A DNA stretch of 64,000 nt. Origin: Dehalococcoidia bacterium. GTDB lineage: Bacteria; Chloroflexota; Dehalococcoidia; Lucifugimonadales; VXLM01. Where the stretch lies: assembly GCA_034421575.1 (NCBI GenBank), contig DAOUKG010000049.1, forward strand, positions 31,928-95,927, in the 5' to 3' direction. The translations under genes and the position numbers were made by a program. The notes beneath the pieces are model-generated. The model worked only from the letters and a program-made list of their open reading frames with translations. It was not told where the DNA came from and ran no database searches. This document shows, piece after piece, positions 1,902 to 52,888 of the stretch (position 1 is its first letter; every line of letters begins with the position of its first letter).

Positions 1902-2036
1902 CGACAAAGACCAATCGAGGGCGCCGCCACGACATAGTTTCATTGGCGGCCAATCCGGTATAATTCATCCGTTCCATGCGTCTCTCGATTTCGGAATCGC
2001 AGGGTACGCCACTCTTCACCGGGGACCACGAGAACA

Positions 2037-2693
2037 ATGAAACAGCAAGTCGTCGTCATCGGTCTAGGCAGGTTCGGTTCGAGCGTAGCCAACTCGCTGT
2101 ATAACCTGGGTCACGACGTTCTCGCGATGGACGTGAACGAAGACCGGGTACAGAGCATGATGGGGCATGTGACCTTCCCGGTTACGGGCAACGCCGCCAA
2201 CGAGACGGTCCTCCGTGAGCTTGGGGTTCCGGACTATGAGGTGGCCGTAGTAGCCATCGGTTCCGACATCGTGGCGAGCGTCCTGTCGACGGTGAACCTC
2301 AAGAACATGGGCGTACCGTACGTGATTGCCCGCGCTCACGACGACCTGCACGGCAATACGCTGGAGCGCATCGGCGCGGACAAGGTAATTCACGCCGAGA
2401 CCGAGATGGGCACCCGGCTGGCGCACAACATGTTCAACCCCAACGTCCAGGAGTATCTCGAATTGGCGCCGAACTTCGGGTTCAGCCGCATTCGCGTGCC
2501 GGATGAGTACGCGGACAAGACCATTGACGAGGTCGATCTAACCGGTCCGAGAGACAAGTACGGCCTTGCAGTCGTAGCGATAAAGCGGGGAAGAGACATC
2601 ACGCTCAATCCCGACACGAGCGACCGGCTTCGGCCGGGGGACGTGCTGATTCTGGCGGGGCGGGACGAGCTATTGGACCGTCTGCCCACCTGA
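2037..2693 (+). CDS. TrkA/KtrA family potassium uptake protein (RCK N + C domains)
   Basis: VVVIGLGRFGSSVA Rossmann motif at the N-terminus, with a C-terminal TrkA-C-like segment (GDVLILAGRDELL). At 218 aa it is KtrA-sized. Confidence 0.9.
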   Translation: MKQQVVVIGLGRFGSSVANSLYNLGHDVLAMDVNEDRVQSMMGHVTFPVTGNAANETVLRELGVPDYEVAVVAIGSDIVASVLSTVNLKNMGVPYVIARAHDDLHGNTLERIGADKVIHAETEMGTRLAHNMFNPNVQEYLELAPNFGFSRIRVPDEYADKTIDEVDLTGPRDKYGLAVVAIKRGRDITLNPDTSDRLRPGDVLILAGRDELLDRLPT

Positions 2694-2754
2694 TGGCCGG
2701 CTCGCGAGAGCTAACCGGCCACACCATGATGATTGACAGGGTGCTGATTTTCCA

Positions 2755-3225
2755 TTGCTGAGACTGAGGAATCGGGATGGCATCGCGATCAAATCGGCGC
2801 TAGTCGCCGTCTCCGGCGGCCCTGTGGACGAGTTTGCCGTTCGTTACGCCGCCCAGATGGTGGAGTCCCAGCGGGGGAGCCTCTACGTGGTCCACGTGAT
2901 AGAAGTGGACCGCGGCCTGCCGGTGGACTCAGAGCTGCCCTTTCACACGAGCCGGGCCGACGATTTGCTGGACAGGATGGAACGCGCGGCAGACTCGTTC
3001 AAATGCAAGGTCTATCCCGAGCTGCTTCAGGCGCGCCGCGCGGGACACGCGATTGTCAATGAAGCGGCAGAGAGGGATGTTGACGTGATCGTGGTCGGGA
3101 TACCCTACAAGACGAAGTACAGCAAATTCACCATGGGAGACGCGGTCCCCTACGTTCTCGAACATGCGCCGTGCCGGGTCCTTCTCTGGCGGGGGGAGAT
3201 CCCCGAAGAACCGCATCACGAATGA
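2755..3225 (+). CDS. universal stress protein (UspA family)
   Basis: USP layout: ALVAVSGGP...YVVHVIEV...DVDVIVVGIPYKTK...APCRVLLW. The TTG start is uncertain. Confidence 0.8.
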   Translation: MLRLRNRDGIAIKSALVAVSGGPVDEFAVRYAAQMVESQRGSLYVVHVIEVDRGLPVDSELPFHTSRADDLLDRMERAADSFKCKVYPELLQARRAGHAIVNEAAERDVDVIVVGIPYKTKYSKFTMGDAVPYVLEHAPCRVLLWRGEIPEEPHHE

Positions 3226-12713: not shown

Positions 12714-13631
12714 TCATGCACGTTCTGGCGGTTGCCGAACGCGTACGGCATAAGCTATCAGGATTACCAAAACGAGCGAGAGGATCCAGATCATGATCCC
12801 GAGTACGGGGGGAACGAACTCGGTTACTTCGAGATCGTGACCAGCCCAGATCCGCAGAGTTATGTAGACCGGCAACAACCCGCTCATCCCGAACAGCGTG
12901 AGGATCGTTTCCCTATATGAGCCACAGGCGGGGTCAAAGCGTGGCAACACCTGACTCGTGAAGCGGTCAATTGCGTCGCTGAATACAGCGACATTCAAAG
13001 AGCCCCCCCGGTGCTTGAAGTCAGTCTCCTGCGGCCCGCCAGCCATATCAAGCCGAGACAGCACCCAAACAGCGAAAAGCGTTACCAAGAGGGTAATGAC
13101 AACCAAATCCCAAGCGACCGGCCCGCCTACAAACCTAGCAAAGACGAGGTTCGGCATGAGCAAACCTAAACCATTGAAGACGGTTGCCAACCCTATTAGC
13201 ACGAGTGCGTGATTGAAGCTGGTTGTGGACGCCTGTCTCGCGAACCAAACCAGTATCGCGTTTGATGCAAGAAATGTTCCCAAACTCCACCACGATGCTG
13301 AAACTACCGACGATTGTTCAATATCCGCCACGTCAAGGACCAGATAGTCAACAGTGGCGACGGCTTCGTATACGAACGCAAAGCCCCACAACAGAGACAG
13401 GGTAGTCCTCCCCAAGCGACGTACACGGAAGTAGAGGATGCCTAGAAGTACCAGCGAGACGTTTAGAAGCGGCGCTGTATATGAAGGGGAAGAATCAACG
13501 TCGAAGGTGATGTTGAAATTGCCGAAAACATGAGTGAGAAGCCACCAACTCGTTTGTTCAACGAGCGTGATGCCTATGAAAAGCATCAGTTCCCATCGAT
13601 ATCGTGATGCTAAATGAGTCAGTGTCGCCAT
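12714..13631 (-). CDS. hypothetical multi-pass membrane protein (paralog A)
   Basis: 305 aa with about 8 hydrophobic segments. The N-terminus MATLTHLASRYRWELML and the C-terminus AYAVRVRQPPER are shared with 13781..14725. Confidence 0.65.
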   Translation of the reverse strand: MATLTHLASRYRWELMLFIGITLVEQTSWWLLTHVFGNFNITFDVDSSPSYTAPLLNVSLVLLGILYFRVRRLGRTTLSLLWGFAFVYEAVATVDYLVLDVADIEQSSVVSASWWSLGTFLASNAILVWFARQASTTSFNHALVLIGLATVFNGLGLLMPNLVFARFVGGPVAWDLVVITLLVTLFAVWVLSRLDMAGGPQETDFKHRGGSLNVAVFSDAIDRFTSQVLPRFDPACGSYRETILTLFGMSGLLPVYITLRIWAGHDLEVTEFVPPVLGIMIWILSLVLVILIAYAVRVRQPPERA

Positions 13632-13780: not shown

Positions 13781-14725
13781 CTAAGCTGTTGCCGACGGTT
13801 CGATTGTCCCCGGTCGTTCCGGCGGCTGACGAACACGTACCGCGTAGGCGAGGCCTATGATCAAAGCTGTCTCGACTGCCCACCACAAAAGCTGAATTGC
13901 CGAGAACGCGAAGACATCAGTGAGTTCCGGACCTTCGCCAATCCAGGGTCCGAATTTTGAGCCGACACGCAGTAGACAGCTCAGACTCAACAGGGCGATG
14001 ATCACCTCTTTGTACCTGCCTCGATCGGGGTCAAATCTCGGCAAAACTCGGCTCATCAAGAATTTCACCGTGCCTCCGAAAAAGGAGACGTCCCTGGGGG
14101 CGCTACGTTTGGCGGCAGTAACGTCTGAATCGTCAACACTGTGAAGCCGCGTCAACACCCACAACGCGAAGAGCTTCAGTACGGCATTGAGAATGGCGGT
14201 CTCCCAGGAGAATATCCAGCCGTCCAGTGTGGGGAAAGGAACGAAAGGTATGAGGATGCCCGAGCCATTGAGGGCTGTCGACAGGGCTATAAGCAGGAGT
14301 GCGTGGTTGAAGCTGAACCTTGACGCCAGTCTTGCGAACCAGACCAACACGATGATTGATACCAGTAACTCTACACCCGTCCACCAAAATGACCAAACCA
14401 CAAACAACTGCACTACCTCATCGATCATCACGCTAAAGAATAGATCGACTATCATGCTGGATACTGCGAATACCAACACGTAGGCCCACGCCAAGGTCAG
14501 CATGGATCTGCCTAAGGCACGTACATGGAAGTAGAAGATGGCCAGCAGAATCGGCTGGACGATCGAGAGTAGCCCTAAAGCGAGTGTGCTGGCGTCAAGT
14601 AAGGCGTCGAGTGCGATCAGAGGGACAATCAGCAATAGCCCGATCACGCCCGACACGAACGGGATGACAAGGACCAGCATCAGTTCCCATCGATAGCGTG
14701 ATGCTAAATGAGTGAGTGTCGCCAT
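13781..14725 (-). CDS. hypothetical multi-pass membrane protein (paralog B)
   Basis: 314 aa with the same termini and topology as paralog A. AAGAGGAAG lies upstream of the ATG in both copies. Confidence 0.65.
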   Translation of the reverse strand: MATLTHLASRYRWELMLVLVIPFVSGVIGLLLIVPLIALDALLDASTLALGLLSIVQPILLAIFYFHVRALGRSMLTLAWAYVLVFAVSSMIVDLFFSVMIDEVVQLFVVWSFWWTGVELLVSIIVLVWFARLASRFSFNHALLLIALSTALNGSGILIPFVPFPTLDGWIFSWETAILNAVLKLFALWVLTRLHSVDDSDVTAAKRSAPRDVSFFGGTVKFLMSRVLPRFDPDRGRYKEVIIALLSLSCLLRVGSKFGPWIGEGPELTDVFAFSAIQLLWWAVETALIIGLAYAVRVRQPPERPGTIEPSATA

Positions 14726-17603: not shown

Positions 17604-18671
17604 CTACAGCGGTGGTTCCTGGTACTCCCTGTCCTTTCGGTATACCACGAGCCTGCTCAATGCGTCGGTGATGAAGATGCGGTTCTGGTCGTCGATGTCG
17701 ATGCCGACGGGCCGAGAGAACCTGTTGAGGAACTCAATGGGGGCGTCGTTGTGGTTGAGGCGCTTGATGCTTTCCGGGTCGCGGTCCAGGGCGTACTGGC
17801 CTGCCTTTGAGAGTTCGTGCATGTCTCCATACAGAGCGGTGAGGACTTCGCCGTCCGGCTCGTAGATCTGGACACGCCGGTTGCCCCAGTCGGTGACGTA
17901 GACGTCGCCGTCGCTGTCGACGGCCACGCCGGAAGGGTTGCACAGCGAGGATGGCGACCCGTTCTGCGAGCCGAAGGACATGAGGTGCTCGCCGTCCGGG
18001 CTGAACTTCTGGACGCGGTTGTTGCCCCAGTCGGCGACGTAGACAGCACCCTCGCAGTCGATGGTGATGCCCCACGGCCGGTTGAACTCTCCCTGAGAGT
18101 TTCCGGGTGAACCCCACGATTTGAGGTAGTCGCCCGTCCTCGTAAACACCTGGACGCGGTTGTTCATGCTGTCGACGATGTAGAGGTCGTCGTTGGAGTC
18201 GAAGGCGATCCCTGCGGGGCCGTTGAGCATCCCAGGCTCGGAGCCCTTCGTGCCCCACCGGTCGATGTACTCCCCATCGGCGCCTTGTTGGGGGAATGCC
18301 ACGATTCCCTCCGGGTCGAATGCCGATATCGTGCATTCGTACTCGTCTGAGGCGAAGACGGTCCCGTCGGTCTTCGAGATGGCGATGCCGACGGGCCAGG
18401 TGAAGCCTCCGCGAGCGAAGTCTCCTATGTGGTCCTCGTCGATGGTCGTCTTGCTGATGCGAAGGTAGGCGTCGTAGCTGCGGATTTCCAGCTTGGGATA
18501 GCCCCAGCCCCGACTGATGACGAAGAGGATGTCGTCGCCCGCCGCCGCGACGTCCATCGGGTAGCAGTACCCGCCCGTCCTGCCGAACTTGCTCTGGTTG
18601 TGCTCGGCCGTCTGCCGCCCGAGGTTATGGCTGTAGTGCCACGTCCGTCCCGCCGCCGTGGTCGTGATCAT
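17604..18671 (-). CDS. NHL repeat-containing protein (six-bladed beta-propeller), paralog 1 of 3
   Basis: Repeated blocks F(N/D)RPWGI(T/A)ID..G.VYVADWGN.RVQ(K/I)F are typical NHL blades. 355 aa, no signal peptide. Confidence 0.85.
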   Translation of the reverse strand: MITTTAAGRTWHYSHNLGRQTAEHNQSKFGRTGGYCYPMDVAAAGDDILFVISRGWGYPKLEIRSYDAYLRISKTTIDEDHIGDFARGGFTWPVGIAISKTDGTVFASDEYECTISAFDPEGIVAFPQQGADGEYIDRWGTKGSEPGMLNGPAGIAFDSNDDLYIVDSMNNRVQVFTRTGDYLKSWGSPGNSQGEFNRPWGITIDCEGAVYVADWGNNRVQKFSPDGEHLMSFGSQNGSPSSLCNPSGVAVDSDGDVYVTDWGNRRVQIYEPDGEVLTALYGDMHELSKAGQYALDRDPESIKRLNHNDAPIEFLNRFSRPVGIDIDDQNRIFITDALSRLVVYRKDREYQEPPL

Positions 18672-19028: not shown

Positions 19029-20096
19029 TTAGAGCGGCGGCTCCTGGTAGTCGCGGTCCTTGTTGTAGACGACGACCCTGCTCAACGCGTCAGTGATGAA
19101 GATTCGGTCGTGCTCGTCGATGTCGATGCCGACGGGGCGGGAGAACCTGTGTGAGTACTCAAGCGGCGCATCGTAGCGATTGAGCGTCTTGATGCTCTCG
19201 GAATCACGTTCCAGGAGGTACTTTCCCGCCTTTGACAGCTCACGCATGTCTCCGTACAGCGACGCGAGCACCTCGCCGTCCGGCTCGTAGATCTGCACAC
19301 GCCTGTTCCCCCAGTCGGTGACGTATACGTCGCCGTCGCTGTCGACTGCCACGCCGGAAGGGTGACTCAGCGACGACGCCGACCCGTTCTGCGAGCCGAA
19401 TGTCATCAGGTGCTCACCGTCAGGGGCGAACTTCTGCACCCGGTGGTTGCCCCAGTCGGCGACGTAGACCGCTCCCTCGCGGTCTATGGTGATGCCCCAG
19501 GGCCGGTTGAACTCTCCCTCGGAATCGCCGACGGCACCCCACGTCTTGAGGTAGTCGCCGTTCTTAGTGAATGCCTGGACGCGGTTGTTCAGGCTGTCGA
19601 CGACGTAGAGGTCGTCGTTCGCGTCGAAGGCGATTCCGGTAGGGCCGTTCAACATTCCCGGCTCGGAGCCCTTCGCCCCCCACCGATCTATGTGCTCACC
19701 GCCGGCGTCACGTTCGGGAAACACCACGATCCCGTCCGGATCGAAGCGCGATATCGTGCACTCGTGCTCGTCGGAGACGAACACGTTGCCGTCAGTTCCC
19801 GAGACGGCGATGCCGGCCGGCCAGGTGAACGCGCCACGGGCGAAGTCACCGATGTGGTCCTCGTCAATCGTGGTCTTGCTGACACGAATGTAAATGTCGT
19901 AGCCGAATGACACGATCACCTGATAGCCCCAACCGCGACTGACGACGAAGAGAATGTCGTCGCCGGCGGCGGCAACGTCGACAGGGTAGCTGTAGCCGCC
20001 CGTCCTCCCGAACCTGCTCTGGTTGTGCTCGGCCGTGTGCCGCCCCATGATATGGCTGTAGTGCCACGTTCGGCCCGCTGCCGTGGTCGTTTTCAT
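19029..20096 (-). CDS. NHL repeat-containing protein, paralog 2 of 3
   Basis: Same architecture as paralog 1. The ATG at 20096 (MKTTTAAGRTWHYSH) is preceded by GGAGGTGA, as in paralog 1. Confidence 0.85.
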   Translation of the reverse strand: MKTTTAAGRTWHYSHIMGRHTAEHNQSRFGRTGGYSYPVDVAAAGDDILFVVSRGWGYQVIVSFGYDIYIRVSKTTIDEDHIGDFARGAFTWPAGIAVSGTDGNVFVSDEHECTISRFDPDGIVVFPERDAGGEHIDRWGAKGSEPGMLNGPTGIAFDANDDLYVVDSLNNRVQAFTKNGDYLKTWGAVGDSEGEFNRPWGITIDREGAVYVADWGNHRVQKFAPDGEHLMTFGSQNGSASSLSHPSGVAVDSDGDVYVTDWGNRRVQIYEPDGEVLASLYGDMRELSKAGKYLLERDSESIKTLNRYDAPLEYSHRFSRPVGIDIDEHDRIFITDALSRVVVYNKDRDYQEPPL

Positions 20097-20340
20097 CGAT
20101 GCCTCACCTCCGGTTGGTACACTCGAAAGATTTAGGGGTGTGTGAGAGGTCTGCAATATCGTTCATGGTGAGCTAATTGCCCTTCGACAAGCTCAGGGGA
20201 GCCAGGCTTCCAAGTAACTGCCCTCGCCTAAGTTGGAGCATCTCCCTCACCCTAGCCCTCTCCCACGACGGGAGAGGGGATAAGAGGCCCTTCGACGGGC
20301 TCAGGGCGAACGGATCATATAGCTCTGTAAGCACCTTCTT

Positions 20341-20508: not shown

Positions 20509-21573
20509 TTAGAGCGGCGGCTCCTGGTAGTCGCGGTCCTTTGTGTAGACCACGAGTCGGCCCATGGCGTCCGTCACGATGACGCGGTCCTGATCGTCGA
20601 CTTCGATGCCAACCGGTCTGGAGAACTTGTTGAGGTACGCCGTCGGCGCGTCGAACTGGTTGAGCCGCTTGATGCTCTCCGGGTCGCGCGCCAGAGCGTA
20701 CTGCCCGGCCTTGGACAGCTCGCTCATATCTCCGTACAGCGCCGCAATCACGTCGCCGTCCGGCTCGTAGATCTGCACGCGGCGGTTGCCCCAGTCTGTG
20801 ACGTAGACGTCTCCGTCGCTGTCGACGGCAACCCCGGCAGGGTGACTCAGCGACGATGTCGACCCGTTCATCGATCCGTATGTCCTGAGGTGTTCTCCAT
20901 CGGGACTGAACTTCTGCACGCGGTGGTTGCCCCAGTCGGCGACATAGACCGCCCCTTCGCGGTCGATGGTGATGCCCCAAGGCCTGTTGAACTCTCCCTC
21001 ACCGTCGCCGGAAGCGCCCCACGTCCTGAGAAAGTCGCCACTCTTGGTGAAGACCTGAACGCGGTTGTTCAGGCTGTCGACGACGTAGAGGTCGTCATTG
21101 GCGTCGAACGCGATTCCGGCGGGGCCGTTCAGCATTCCCGGCTCGGAACCCCTCGTGCCCCAACGGTCGAAGTACTCGCCGTCCGGGTCGCGCTCGCAGA
21201 ACGTCTGGATGGCGTTAGGGTCGAAGAGTGAAATGTTGCACTCGTACTCGTCGGAGGCGAATACGCTGCCGTCGGTCTTCGAGACGGCGATCCCCACCGG
21301 CCAGGTGAAGCCACCGCGAGCGAAGTCGCCGATGTGATCTTCGTCAATCGTCGTCTTGCCGATCCGGGTGAATACGTCGAAGTCGTACGACACGTTCGGG
21401 AATCCGTAGCCGCGACTGATGACGAAGAGAATGTCGTCGCCCGCCGCAGTGACGTCCACCGGGAAGCCGTAGCCGCCCGTCCTGCCGAACTTGCTCTGGT
21501 TGTGCTCGGCCGTCTGACGCCCCAGGTTGTGGCTGTAGTGCCACGTCCTGCCCGCTGCCGTGGTCGTAATCAT
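20509..21573 (-). CDS. NHL repeat-containing protein, paralog 3 of 3
   Basis: 354 aa. The N-terminus MITTTAAGRTWHYSHNLGRQTAEHNQSKFGRTGGY is identical to paralog 1. Confidence 0.85.
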   Translation of the reverse strand: MITTTAAGRTWHYSHNLGRQTAEHNQSKFGRTGGYGFPVDVTAAGDDILFVISRGYGFPNVSYDFDVFTRIGKTTIDEDHIGDFARGGFTWPVGIAVSKTDGSVFASDEYECNISLFDPNAIQTFCERDPDGEYFDRWGTRGSEPGMLNGPAGIAFDANDDLYVVDSLNNRVQVFTKSGDFLRTWGASGDGEGEFNRPWGITIDREGAVYVADWGNHRVQKFSPDGEHLRTYGSMNGSTSSLSHPAGVAVDSDGDVYVTDWGNRRVQIYEPDGDVIAALYGDMSELSKAGQYALARDPESIKRLNQFDAPTAYLNKFSRPVGIEVDDQDRVIVTDAMGRLVVYTKDRDYQEPPL

Positions 21574-50991: not shown

Positions 50992-52116
50992 ATGAAGCGA
51001 TTCATCCACATATCGGGTTTCGGCCTGCTGGCCCTCATGTCGCTTGCAGTTGTCTCCTGCGGCGGAGAGCCCGACACCCCTGCCGAGCAGCCGACCACCG
51101 TCGCCCAGACCGTCCCGACCGTCGCGCCTTCGCCCGTGCCGACCGATACGCCTGAACCGACGGCTACCACGGAACCGACGCCTCAGCCGCCGACCTCGAC
51201 CCCGGCTCCGGTCCCAACCCCAACGACGCCTCCAACACCTGAACCCACCGCAACGGAGGTACCAACCGCCACTGCGACGATGGTACCGACCTCCACGCCT
51301 ACGACGGTCCCGACGGCCACGTCAACTCCTGTCCCAACTCCGACCTATACACCCATTCCCACGGCAACATCCACGCCGGTGTCCGCTCTGACGGTCGTAC
51401 CAGCCACCACTTCAGGCAGCCAGGCCACAGCAGAGCCCACCCCAACAGCTACCGCTACCTTCATCCCAACGTTTACCCCCAGGCCCACTCGCACGCCAAC
51501 TCCAACGTTGACGCCCACGCCTACGATTACCCCAACTCCGCTGCCGCCGACTCCGACGCCTATCCCTCCGACTCCCACGAACACACCGGTGCCGCCGACG
51601 CCCACCTACACACCCGTCCCGCCGACCGCGACAGCCGTGCCGGAACCTGAGCCGACTCGGGCTGCAGTCACTGCCGAACCCGGCACGAATGTCGGCAATC
51701 TCGCCCCCGAATACGTCCTGAACATTGCGGGAGGCAACCAGGTGAGTTCCACCGACCTCGTGGCGCAGGGGAAGCCCGTCTTCATCCTGTTCCACGCAAC
51801 GTGGTGACCGGACTGTCGCGCCGCGTTGCGGGGCCTGACCGAAGTCTATCCGCCACTCAAGGATAAGGTGGCACTCTACGCCGTGGCCTTCAACGAGCCT
51901 CTCAGCGATCTGCAGGAATACCAGAACAACAGCGGTCATGCCGGTACGGTGGCCAAGGCTGTGGGGAACATGATCAGAGACTTCAGAGTGACGCAGCAGT
52001 CCACCAAGGTGGCCATCGACGGGAACGGTGTAATCATCTACCGTAGCGGCTACGGACGGGGCAGCGCGGCCGAGTGGGCCGCCGTCCTCCAAGAACTGGC
52101 CAACAGCGCGCAGTAG
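50992..52116 (+). CDS. TlpA/ResA-like thioredoxin-fold lipoprotein, predicted selenoprotein (TGA 51805..51807 read as Sec; active site W-U-P-D-C)
   Basis: ORFs 50992..51807 and 51826..52116 are in one frame, separated only by TGA. Lipobox LAVVSCGG. A Pro/Thr linker of about 200 aa. Then [12 protein letters not shown]-[TGA][10 protein letters not shown]...YAVAFNE...[19 protein letters not shown], a complete thioredoxin fold only if the TGA is decoded. Confidence 0.7.
51818..51834 (+). promoter_or_regulatory. candidate bacterial SECIS hairpin
   Basis: GCGCCGC-GUU-GCGGGGC, beginning 11 nt after the UGA. The loop starts with G about 20 nt from the UGA. The stem has one G.G mismatch. Confidence 0.4.
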
Positions 52117-52216
52117 GAGACGCTACACAATCATCGGTCAAACCGGCGAAGAGAAGTCACCCCGTACTCGATACGGGGCGGGAATCCACTAACAAGATCG
52201 TGGAGGTGACAACGTC

Positions 52217-52888
52217 ATGAATCGCGCAATCATCGTCCGATTGGTTATCGGCTCAATCATGGCACTTTCGCTGCTGACCGCTGTCGCATGCGGAAGCGGT
52301 TCGGATTCTTCCGACGAGTCTCAACCCTCCGATACGACTACGACCTCTCCTGCGCCTGCGCCTCCTCCGCCCGCAGCGCAGACTTCCCCGCCACCCGCAG
52401 CCGCGCCGCAACCAACTACTGCTCCTGCGCCCGCACCGTCCGAGGAAACCGTCCCCGTCGGACACCGTGTCGGCGACCGCGCGCCCGACTACATGCTGGC
52501 CCTCACCGGCGACCGGCAGGTCAACTCGACCGATCTCGTGTCCGAGGGGAAACCGGTATTCATCCTGTTCCACGCGACGTGGTGACCGGACTGTCGCTCC
52601 GCGTTGCGGGGCATAAGTTCAGTCTACCCGGCCTATGAGGACTCGGTTGACTTCTACGCGGTAGGTTTCAATGAGGGGTTGGATGTCCTATCGGCAGCCC
52701 AGGACAGAAACGGACATCCGGGAGAAGTGGCAAAGCCGAGCGATTCGATGCTAAAAGACTTCAATGTGACGCGCCAGTCCACTAAGGTAGGCATCGACGC
52801 GAACGGCATAATCGTCTACCGTGCCGGAATCGGCCAGGGTGATTCCAATGAATGGGAGGGTGTTCTCAAGGAGCTGGCGGCTAACTGA
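52217..52888 (+). CDS. TlpA/ResA-like thioredoxin-fold lipoprotein, predicted selenoprotein (TGA 52583..52585 read as Sec; W-U-P-D-C)
   Basis: ORFs 52217..52585 and 52604..52888 are in one frame. Lipobox LTAVACGSG. A short Pro/Ala-rich linker. Then [12 protein letters not shown]-[TGA]-PDCRSALRGI...YAVGFNE...STKVGIDANGIIVYRAGIG. GGAGGTGA lies upstream of the ATG. Confidence 0.7.
52596..52612 (+). promoter_or_regulatory. candidate bacterial SECIS hairpin
   Basis: GCUCCGC-GUU-GCGGGGC. Same hairpin as in the paralog, but the mismatch position is now a U.G wobble, giving 7 continuous pairs. Confidence 0.4.

Follow-up and report, generated by a model that had tools for sequence, protein, structure and literature searches.

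Does an in-frame TGA at the same catalytic position of two neighbouring genes from a marine Dehalococcoidia bacterium end translation, or is it read as an amino acid, and if so as which one? In the 64-kb stretch of DNA analysed here (the window), the public gene calls and the NCBI annotation list each piece of this gene pair as a separate 'hypothetical protein'. The original prediction had joined the pieces two by two, each pair in a single reading frame and linked by a TGA followed by P-D-C-R, and had read the TGA as selenocysteine (Sec). Both structural points were confirmed: the ORFs 50992..51807 and 51826..52116 share one frame of 1125 nt, the ORFs 52217..52585 and 52604..52888 share another of 672 nt, both lengths are divisible by 3, and the TGA codons at 51805 and 52583 are each followed by CCG GAC TGT CGC, encoding P-D-C-R. 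Our analysis indicates that both are very probably selenoprotein genes in which UGA is read as Sec, each encoding one thioredoxin-fold lipoprotein, and that gene finders would split each of them in two because the catalytic Sec is written as TGA.

Table 1. Positions in the window of the two genes and of the elements predicted or recognized within and between them.
Feature	Position	Strand	Basis
Gene 1, complete, 374 codons, stop TAG	50992..52116	+	one 1125-nt frame; domain match
Gene 1 layout: signal peptide, ~205-aa Thr/Pro-rich linker, thioredoxin-fold domain	50992..52116	+	
Gene 1 lipoprotein signal peptide, predicted lipid-modified Cys23	50992..51060	+	lipobox pattern match
Gene 1 in-frame TGA, predicted Sec codon, W-U-P-D-C	51805..51807	+	aligns with first Cys of ResA/DsbE CxxC
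Gene 1 resolving Cys codon TGT of UxxC	51814..51816	+	Cys kept across homologs
Gene 1 SECIS-like hairpin GCGCCGC-GUU-GCGGGGC, one G.G mismatch	51818..51834	+	
Gene 1 invariant Q-S-T-K at thioredoxin-fold cis-Pro loop position	51997..52008	+	alignment
REP-like repeat copy, intergenic (gene 1/gene 2), outside the recoding signal	52151..52211	not assigned	
Shine-Dalgarno-like GGAGGTG, 8 nt upstream of gene 2 ATG	52202..52208	+	sequence reading
Gene 2, complete, 223 codons, terminal stop itself TGA	52217..52888	+	one 672-nt frame; domain match
Gene 2 layout: signal peptide, ~53-aa Pro/Ala/Ser/Thr linker, thioredoxin-fold domain	52217..52888	+	
Gene 2 lipoprotein signal peptide MNRAIIVRLVIGSIMALSLLTAVA, then predicted lipid-modified Cys25	52217..52291	+	lipobox pattern
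Gene 2 in-frame TGA, predicted Sec codon, W-U-P-D-C	52583..52585	+	
Gene 2 resolving Cys codon TGT	52592..52594	+	
Gene 2 SECIS-like hairpin GCUCCGC-GUU-GCGGGGC, 7 bp	52596..52612	+	
Gene 2 invariant Q-S-T-K, Ser replacing cis-Pro	52775..52786	+	alignment

The joined products were compared with the Pfam profiles, of which AhpC-TSA (PF00578) has a gathering cut-off of 26 bits and Redoxin (PF08534) one of 26.6 bits. AhpC-TSA was matched over nearly its whole length by gene 1 (43.7 bits, E 3e-11, profile positions 1-121 of 124) and by gene 2 (39.1 bits, E 8e-10, positions 1-123 of 124), and Redoxin was matched with 27.1 and 29.2 bits, respectively. Scanned alone against Pfam, the downstream piece of gene 1 and the upstream piece of gene 2 each gave no domain match, in agreement with the claim that neither half is a complete domain. 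The thioredoxin-fold domains of the two genes share 58% protein identity. As had been proposed for the W-C-x-x-C catalytic position of TlpA/ResA/DsbE proteins, the TGA column aligned with the first Cys of the CxxC motif in ResA, DsbE/CcmG and tryparedoxin. In three alignments Ser108 of the invariant Q-S-T-K lined up with the cis-Pro of the fold, which in ResA/CcmG/TlpA lies in a conserved loop opposite the CxxC, a correspondence established by sequence alignment only. Both genes, and most full-length Cys homologs, also matched a lipobox pattern (K/R within the first 7 residues, a hydrophobic core, [LIVMFWSTAG]2-[LIVMFYSTAGCQ]-[AGS]-C, Cys at residues 15-35), which we take to be that of PROSITE PS00013. 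The claim that both proteins begin with lipoprotein signal peptides thus fits this pattern, with Cys23 and Cys25 as the predicted lipidation sites. In gene 1 the linker that follows consists of 32% Thr and 29% Pro.

To what extent the TGA is shared was determined in 41 distinct gene copies, which came from the window, close relatives, 14 reference Dehalococcoidia/Chloroflexota species, both ancient paralogs and divergent metagenome relatives. TGA occupied the catalytic column in 41/41 of them. It was found in 33/33 distinct copies of both paralog clades from the window, the close relatives and the 14 reference species, in 6/6 copies from metagenome relatives that are far more divergent, and in the second domain of L079, a syntenic two-domain relative whose domain 1 has a Cys codon (TGC) and is 43% identical to gene 1. 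The gene duplication is older than the divergence of at least 10 species (minimum identity, 55%). Because 41/41 homologous copies carry TGA, the shared column is beyond chance, and the argument that the same position in two paralogs reflects neither error nor random nonsense was strengthened by the many independent assemblies. A Cys codon (TGC/TGT), mostly within WCPxC, occupies the column in all 32 full-length representative clusters and in distant homologs, so that homologs carry either TGA, within the clade, or Cys, in full-length relatives, as the original prediction anticipated. About 106 of the 147 representative clusters are TGA-type fragments. The resolving Cys is kept with synonymous variation (TGT in 28 homologs, TGC in 5), and the xx residues of UxxC vary (PD, SD, PS, SS, GV, PV, SV) while the TGA stays fixed. 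As far as seen, the clade is restricted to Dehalococcoidia/Chloroflexota and related metagenome contigs.

A SECIS-like hairpin, with a stem of 6-7 bp, a C/A-G-U-U-G loop and 16-17 nt from the UGA to the loop, follows the UGA in these genes. The published bSECIS model calls for a loop of 3-5 nt, N1-G-[G|U]-N-N2, and a minimum free energy (MFE) below -7.5 kcal/mol (PMC13188914), and the hairpins of both genes agree with all four of its constraints. Folding of 51 nt gave an MFE of -16.5 kcal/mol for gene 1 and -21.4 kcal/mol for gene 2; the fold-energy z-score was -2.19 for gene 2 and unremarkable for gene 1 (0.07-0.08). In codons +1 to +9 after the TGA the third-position diversity falls to.071, and TCC-GCG-TTG-CGG had no synonymous variant among 33 sequences. 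The TTG at 51826-51828, read as an ORF start, encodes Leu and makes up the apical loop of the SECIS. Inside the close Dehalococcoidia clade 5/7 stem pairs are invariant, which precludes a covariation test there. In a wide alignment 87.8% of the cells were paired, against 29-61% when slid, and compensatory changes were seen in 4/6 pairs. The covariation score of 0.302, against 0.137±0.036, was reached by 0/500 shuffles and comes from 15 sequences only, 6 of them divergent, because the stem lacks variation inside the close clade; the structure, moreover, had been derived from these same sequences. L079 offers an internal comparison: a perfect hairpin of 7 bp (-14.0 kcal/mol) is present in its TGA domain, and its Cys domain, where the Leu is encoded by CTC, has none (-3.1 kcal/mol).

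Rfam returned no SECIS, either at the gathering threshold on the whole window or at E <= 10 on 51700-52750. The suggested check for a SECIS behind each TGA gave a hairpin that agrees with the bSECIS model and covaries, and no match to an Rfam SECIS family. Its position in the coding region right after the UGA, its loop, stem, spacing and MFE all fit the consensus bacterial SECIS. It has no sequence similarity to the prototype, E. coli fdhF, and matches no Rfam model, and its binding by SelB is a prediction. The sole notable Rfam match was a sub-threshold one, to an unrelated intergenic repeat.

Other readings of the TGA were weighed against these data. Were the TGA codons genuine stops, the genes would be pseudogenes or carry nonsense or sequencing errors, and at most truncated N-terminal fragments would be made. 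The separate annotation of each piece is consistent with this, as is the use of TGA as a normal stop in the window genome, where it terminates 12/39 confident genes, and it also ends 18/33 of the family genes themselves. The 41/41 conservation across independent assemblies and two paralog lineages that split before at least 10 species diverged nevertheless effectively refutes this explanation, which we consider extremely improbable. The part downstream of the TGA is under undiminished, coding-type purifying selection, with nucleotide diversities at codon positions 1/2/3 of.234/.194/.422 as compared with.185/.138/.432 upstream, and contains 0 stops in frame versus about 4 in the other frames; the N-terminal fragment, as judged from the gene 2 upstream piece, has no domain match on its own. 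Alternatively, the N- and C-terminal pieces could be separate translation products, the C-terminal one starting at TTG, that come together in one thioredoxin fold. An invariant TTG 7 codons past the TGA is indeed a candidate start, used by gene callers throughout the family ('MRxLK...' fragments), yet it has no upstream Shine-Dalgarno sequence, whereas the true start of gene 2 has GGAGGTG. Between TGA and TTG lie six codons whose protein sequence is conserved while synonymous sites vary, and this scheme would leave the indispensable resolving Cys, which they include, untranslated. A ribosome-binding site for the downstream part, which together with a start of its own would have spoken against the original prediction, was not seen. 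Moreover, the Cys-form homologs are single chains, the C-terminal piece would lack a signal peptide although the N-terminal one is predicted to be exported, and the Cys domain of L079 has CTC instead of TTG; we give a split protein hardly any credence.

A third possibility is that a near-cognate or suppressor tRNA inserts a standard amino acid (Cys, Trp or Arg) at the UGA, perhaps with stimulation by the hairpin, as could be the case, for instance, in a lineage without Sec machinery. Hairpin-stimulated read-through occurs in other systems, which lends this some plausibility, as does the failure to find Sec machinery in the loci searched: selA, selB, selD and tRNA-Sec were all absent from the 64-kb window, from 8 kb more of the source contig and from 20 related loci. 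Such genes need not be linked to the locus, and their absence near it is therefore uninformative. Global reassignment is excluded because TGA ends 12/39 window genes. Against a standard amino acid, the hairpin fits a SelB-type bSECIS in loop sequence, size and spacing, and the site is the redox-active Cys of UxxC, the motif in which bacterial Sec is most often found (PMC2398784, PMC13188914). The class also includes very selenoprotein-rich MAGs: in BSepDB, Dehalococcoidia MAGs rank within the top ten bacteria for selenoprotein richness (PMC13326102). For Chloroflexi there is a report of tRNA-Sec (PMC5389517). A literature search for selenoproteins of SAR202/sponge bacteria was without result. 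We judge the incorporation of a standard amino acid to be quite unlikely. Taken together, all the sequence-level predictions of the selenoprotein reading that were open to test here held, and this reading is supported. A crude GC3-based search of the 64-kb window for in-frame TGA codons gave no additional convincing selenoprotein gene; it also missed the TGA of gene 2 and is thus insensitive.

Selenolipoproteins and UxxC thioredoxin/Prx-like selenoproteins have been described before, and the gene pair is a well-supported further example. With the 'Prx-like thiol:disulfide oxidoreductase' selenoproteins it shares a PF00578 match above cut-off, UxxC (not TxxU) with Sec replacing the first, N-terminal Cys of CxxC, many homologs of the Cys form, a bSECIS right after the UGA and a marine distribution. 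The assignment to this family, whose references include Geobacter WP_010940744.1, was made by PF00578 and UxxC. The pair differs from them in encoding lipoproteins with a Pro/Thr-rich tether and Q-S-T-K for the cis-Pro loop, and the present clade occurs in tandem genes or two-domain fusions. ResA, CcmG (DsbE) and TlpA gave the best solved-structure matches (profile E 1e-10 to 1e-8, whole domain) and are similar in the W-C-x-x-C position, extracytoplasmic membrane tethering and size; they differ in their conserved cis-Pro, which is Ser here, and in their Cys, here a predicted Sec. The original assignment to the TlpA/ResA/DsbE type accordingly stood for likeness of fold and failed for ResA/DsbE identity, the cis-Pro being replaced and the NCBIfam scores lying far below their cut-offs: 42.3 and 37.9 bits against 170 for ResA (NF002854), and, for DsbE-CcmG, 35.8 and 25.7 against 123 (TIGR00385) and 36.8 and 31.1 against 359 (NF011941).

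The Rcas_1661 family thioredoxin-like (seleno)lipoprotein (NF041057), the locus-tag prefix of which presumably points to a Chloroflexi (Roseiflexus) origin, likewise comprises thioredoxin-like lipoproteins in Sec and Cys forms. Membership was rejected: only gene 2 gave a match, of 15.5 bits against 190, confined to its low-complexity N-terminal region. No curated NCBIfam family matched the gene pair. Genes for cytochrome c maturation, CcdA/DsbD, Sco and Msr were not found in the window or the flanks examined. The neighbouring genes, partly syntenic, encode Aminotran_5 (aminotransferase) and 2-Hacid_dh (2-hydroxyacid dehydrogenase) proteins. A function deduced from operon context was discarded, these two having no known link to thiol:disulfide exchange and offering no hint of a substrate or redox partner.

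What we infer, as follows, concerns SelB/tRNA-Sec decoding in the Dehalococcoidia host, lipidation and export, the substrate, and which way electrons flow. [quoted passage not shown] Each gene would yield one polypeptide that starts with a lipoprotein signal peptide, continues as a Pro/Thr-rich tether of low complexity and ends in a TlpA/Prx-like domain with W-U-P-D-C. Export and lipidation would place this domain on the outer face of the cytoplasmic membrane, where it may act as a thiol/selenol:disulfide oxidoreductase, Sec attacking and the downstream Cys resolving the selenenylsulfide.

A wider interpretation, which we put forward tentatively as a possibility that we would not yet favour, is that these genes belong to a selenolipoprotein subfamily of their own within the TlpA/Prx-like superfamily, one for which no model exists yet. 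It would be marked jointly by Sec outnumbering Cys, the invariant Q-S-T-K for the cis-Pro, a family-specific SECIS laid over the (S/A)-(A/E)-L-R codons, and a customary layout as tandem genes or as two domains, at times a Cys domain paired with a Sec domain. This arrangement suggests, as part of the same tentative interpretation, that marine and possibly sponge-associated Dehalococcoidia run an extracytoplasmic selenol/thiol relay in two steps.

If the selenoprotein reading is right, many public Dehalococcoidia/Chloroflexota records contain, per genome, two selenoprotein genes that are listed as four 'hypothetical protein' fragments. Annotation pipelines will go on splitting both genes because no curated NCBIfam model covers them, and the invariant TTG within the SECIS loop would reliably mislead gene callers into a false start. 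The gene pair leaves the current understanding of selenocysteine biology unchanged; what it would contribute is Sec enzymes tethered to the membrane outside the cytoplasm, in a lineage already noted for its richness in selenoproteins. L079 documents Sec/Cys interchange at a syntenic locus, and the compact, well-conserved SECIS could help define SelB specificity in Chloroflexota.

The UxxC selenoproteins of the original prediction are supported by the pairing of TGA with Cys codons among homologs, by coding past the TGA, by a SECIS-like hairpin and by a related metagenome locus, L079, and selenocysteine decoding of both TGAs is considered highly probable. As that prediction had it, the four ORF pieces lie two per gene in one frame, at the coordinates it named, each pair forming a single frame of 1125 nt (gene 1) or 672 nt (gene 2), and both joined products read W-U-P-D-C. 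When the joined products were searched with TGA translated as Cys, Pfam AhpC-TSA was matched nearly end to end by gene 1 (profile 1-121 of 124, 43.7 bits) and gene 2 (1-123 of 124, 39.1 bits; cut-off 26), and Redoxin was also matched by both. Scanned singly against Pfam, neither the downstream piece of gene 1 nor the upstream piece of gene 2 gave a match, in agreement with the view that neither half is a complete domain. The closest solved structures were 2m72 (an uncharacterised thioredoxin-like protein), ResA, DsbE/CcmG and tryparedoxins, and in alignments to solved thioredoxin-fold structures the TGA coincides with the first Cys of W-C-x-x-C, as had been proposed. Both N-termini fit the pattern of the predicted lipoprotein signal peptides (Cys23 in gene 1, Cys25 in gene 2), which are followed by Pro/Thr-rich tethers of ~205 and ~53 residues, respectively. 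A Q-S-T-K motif (51997-52008 in gene 1, 52775-52786 in gene 2) is invariant across the subfamily, in Sec and Cys forms alike. It aligns to the cis-Pro loop of ResA, CcmG and 2m72, where Ser would take the proline position; cis-Pro is nearly universal in the thioredoxin fold, and judging from the alignment the subfamily has Ser or Thr there.

Coordinates of the predicted selenoprotein genes and of other features of the stretch
Feature	Position	Strand	Remark
Gene 1 and gene 2 (adjacent)	50992..52116, 52217..52888	+	each cut at an in-frame TGA in the mechanical ORF list
In-frame TGA codons	51805-51807 (gene 1), 52583-52585 (gene 2)	+	predicted Sec codons
REP-like repeat cores	6472, 6672, 27573, 28112, 30685, 49350, 55588		family mostly intergenic
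REP-like repeat variants	50846, 52178, 59374		as above
Three consecutive paralogous NHL-repeat / SMP-30-like beta-propeller genes	17604-18671, 19029-20156, 20509-21573	-	two with identical N-terminus
Two adjacent paralogous genes	12714-13631, 13781-14725	-	no Pfam match

TGA occupies the catalytic column in all 33 distinct nucleotide versions (window, close relatives, 14 species), and distant homologs carry TGC or TGT there (FFHATW-C-P-S/D-C), which is the Cys-or-TGA alternation expected of a selenoprotein column. In the 5 distinct divergent loci for which DNA was obtained, 6/6 copies were likewise TGA-split (UGVC, UPVC, USVC). Searched exhaustively by phmmer, the C-terminal piece of gene 2 gave 147 representative clusters, 32 of them full-length with CxxC (mostly W-C-P-x-C, many with lipoprotein N-termini) and ~106 short C-terminal pieces, many beginning 'M-R-x-L'. 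A neighbour-joining tree places the upstream copies in one clade and the downstream copies in another, and therefore the duplication is older than the split of at least 10 species; a second, recent duplication occurred in another lineage. A sequencing error or a random nonsense mutation is thus excluded, since TGA is conserved across copies, species and paralog clades and was kept through both duplications, as the occurrence of TGA in two diverged paralogs had already argued. Genome-wide reassignment of TGA was likewise rejected, as TGA terminates 12 of the 39 confident window genes; it is also the terminal stop in 18/33 of the selenoprotein genes themselves. If the downstream piece were a separate gene with its own ribosome binding site, a Shine-Dalgarno sequence would be expected before its TTG start, and none was found in the sequence there, in contrast to the GGAGGTG that stands 8 nt before the ATG of gene 2.

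Translation appears to continue beyond the TGA. Nucleotide diversity at codon positions 1/2/3 was.185/.138/.432 upstream and.234/.194/.422 downstream of it, the same third-position-dominated pattern on both sides, with 0 in-frame stops as against ~4 in every other frame. Between Sec and Cys the residues are variable (PD, SD, PS, SS, GV, PV, SV), and the resolving Cys alternates between TGT and TGC among homologs; the stretch from TGA to TTG is therefore under protein-level selection.

Nucleotide identity between the window paralogs peaks at 97% over codons -8 to +9 and is ~50-60% elsewhere. Among the 33 sequences, third-position diversity was six-fold lower in codons +1..+9, and TCC-GCG-TTG-CGG had zero synonymous variants, despite the many possible for Ser, Ala, Leu and Arg. 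This segment forms a hairpin, G-C-U-C-C-G-[C-G-U-U-G]-C-G-G-R-G-C, starting 11 nt 3' of the UGA, which agrees with all four published constraints on bacterial SECIS elements (PMC13188914): its loop reads C/A-G-U-U-G, its stem has 6-7 bp, the spacing is 16-17 nt, and the 51-nt folds of the two genes reach -16.5 and -21.4 kcal/mol. Rfam holds no matching SECIS model. No covariation was seen within the close clade, where the stem is invariant. In an alignment of 15 sequences including divergent relatives, 87.8% of cells were paired vs 29-61% with slid partners, compensatory double changes affected 4/6 pairs (C-G/U-A, G-C/C-G/A-U), and the covariation score was 0.302 vs 0.137±0.036, matched by 0/500 shuffles. 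The TTG taken as start by gene callers (51826, 52604) encodes Leu and lies in the apical loop of the SECIS. Fragments reading 'M-R-x-L-K/T...' from this invariant TTG are family-wide (related proteins P0062-P0194), a signature of the split selenoprotein genes of this family.

A natural control was provided by the syntenic L079 (positions 2001-3140; ENA ERZ28763718:ctg125757, 2.3-Mb contig), where one lipoprotein ORF with two thioredoxin-like domains stands in place of the tandem genes. Domain 1 (43% identity to gene 1) has TGC (WCPIC), Leu as CTC and no hairpin (-3.1 kcal/mol), whereas in domain 2 (47% identity to gene 2) W-TGA-PSC precedes a hairpin with a perfect 7-bp stem, GCGCCGC-GUU-GCGGCGC (-14.0 kcal/mol). 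The hairpin therefore tracks the TGA rather than the amino-acid sequence, and the locus shows Sec/Cys interchange and gene fusion inside the family. A similar two-domain protein, P0121, is all Cys.

When one genome was scanned for each GTDB species, with seeding partly on GKPVFILF (a motif uninformative on the TGA column), close relatives were recovered in 14 species (57-97% identity), all Dehalococcoidia or Chloroflexota MAGs and several of them complete chromosomes; in other phyla the remaining matches were only distant thioredoxin-fold proteins. The window lies within the 102-kb ENA metagenome scaffold ERZ23495174:NGUY21-1_SAMN17524325_METAG-scaffold_731. One 4.03-Mb contig, presumably of the same species as the window, has an identical TrkA protein and a common gene order over ~20 kb. 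On the near-identical metagenome contig L002 (51-2488; ENA ERZ23491282 scaffold_18694), gene 1 is absent. Upstream of gene 2, this contig has an IS1595-family transposase together with two genes for N6/N4 DNA methyltransferases, of which one includes an HNH domain; this suggests mobile-element insertion or replacement.

The REP-like repeat is a perfect hairpin, GTCATTCCCGC-GAAA-GCGGGAATCCA, with the core ATTCCC-N8-GGGAAT; GCGGGAATCC with at most 1 mismatch occurs 28 times vs 8.7±2.7 expected. The copy between genes 1 and 2 (52151-52211) has a sub-threshold match to Rfam RF02278. Two of the three NHL-repeat / SMP-30-like genes have an identical N-terminus, MITTTAAGRTWHYSHNLGRQTAEHN, and the two adjacent paralogs have near-identical N-termini (MATLTHLASRYRWELML...) and a GC3 below that of their neighbours.

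The genes neighbouring the selenoprotein pair (aminotransferase, SDR, 2-hydroxyacid dehydrogenase) are uninformative on substrate and redox partner. No selA, selB, selD or tRNA-Sec was found in the window, in a further 8 kb of the source contig or in related loci; these genes need not be linked to selenoprotein genes. At the lineage level, the literature supports Sec use: two Dehalococcoidia MAGs rank in the top ten of the BSepDB bacteria for richness in selenoproteins (PMC13326102), and tRNA-Sec species have been described in Chloroflexi (PMC5389517).

Membership of the curated thioredoxin-like (seleno)lipoprotein family NF041057 was rejected (15.5 bits vs 190), and the window proteins score well below the ResA and DsbE cut-offs. 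The classic class of bacterial selenoproteins, and the one with the most members, consists of UxxC proteins with a thioredoxin/Prx-like fold; it includes the 'Prx-like thiol:disulfide oxidoreductase' (PF00578, UxxC), the 'Prx-like protein' of the Sargasso Sea, and 'Prx-like 1' (225 sequences) and 'Prx-like 3' of GOS (PMC13188914, PMC2398784, PMC1088965, PMC1794560). The window genes, whose pieces are publicly annotated as 'hypothetical protein', are new, currently mis-annotated members of this already known kind and would not surprise a specialist; the finding is of use for annotation and for the definition of a Chloroflexota SECIS.
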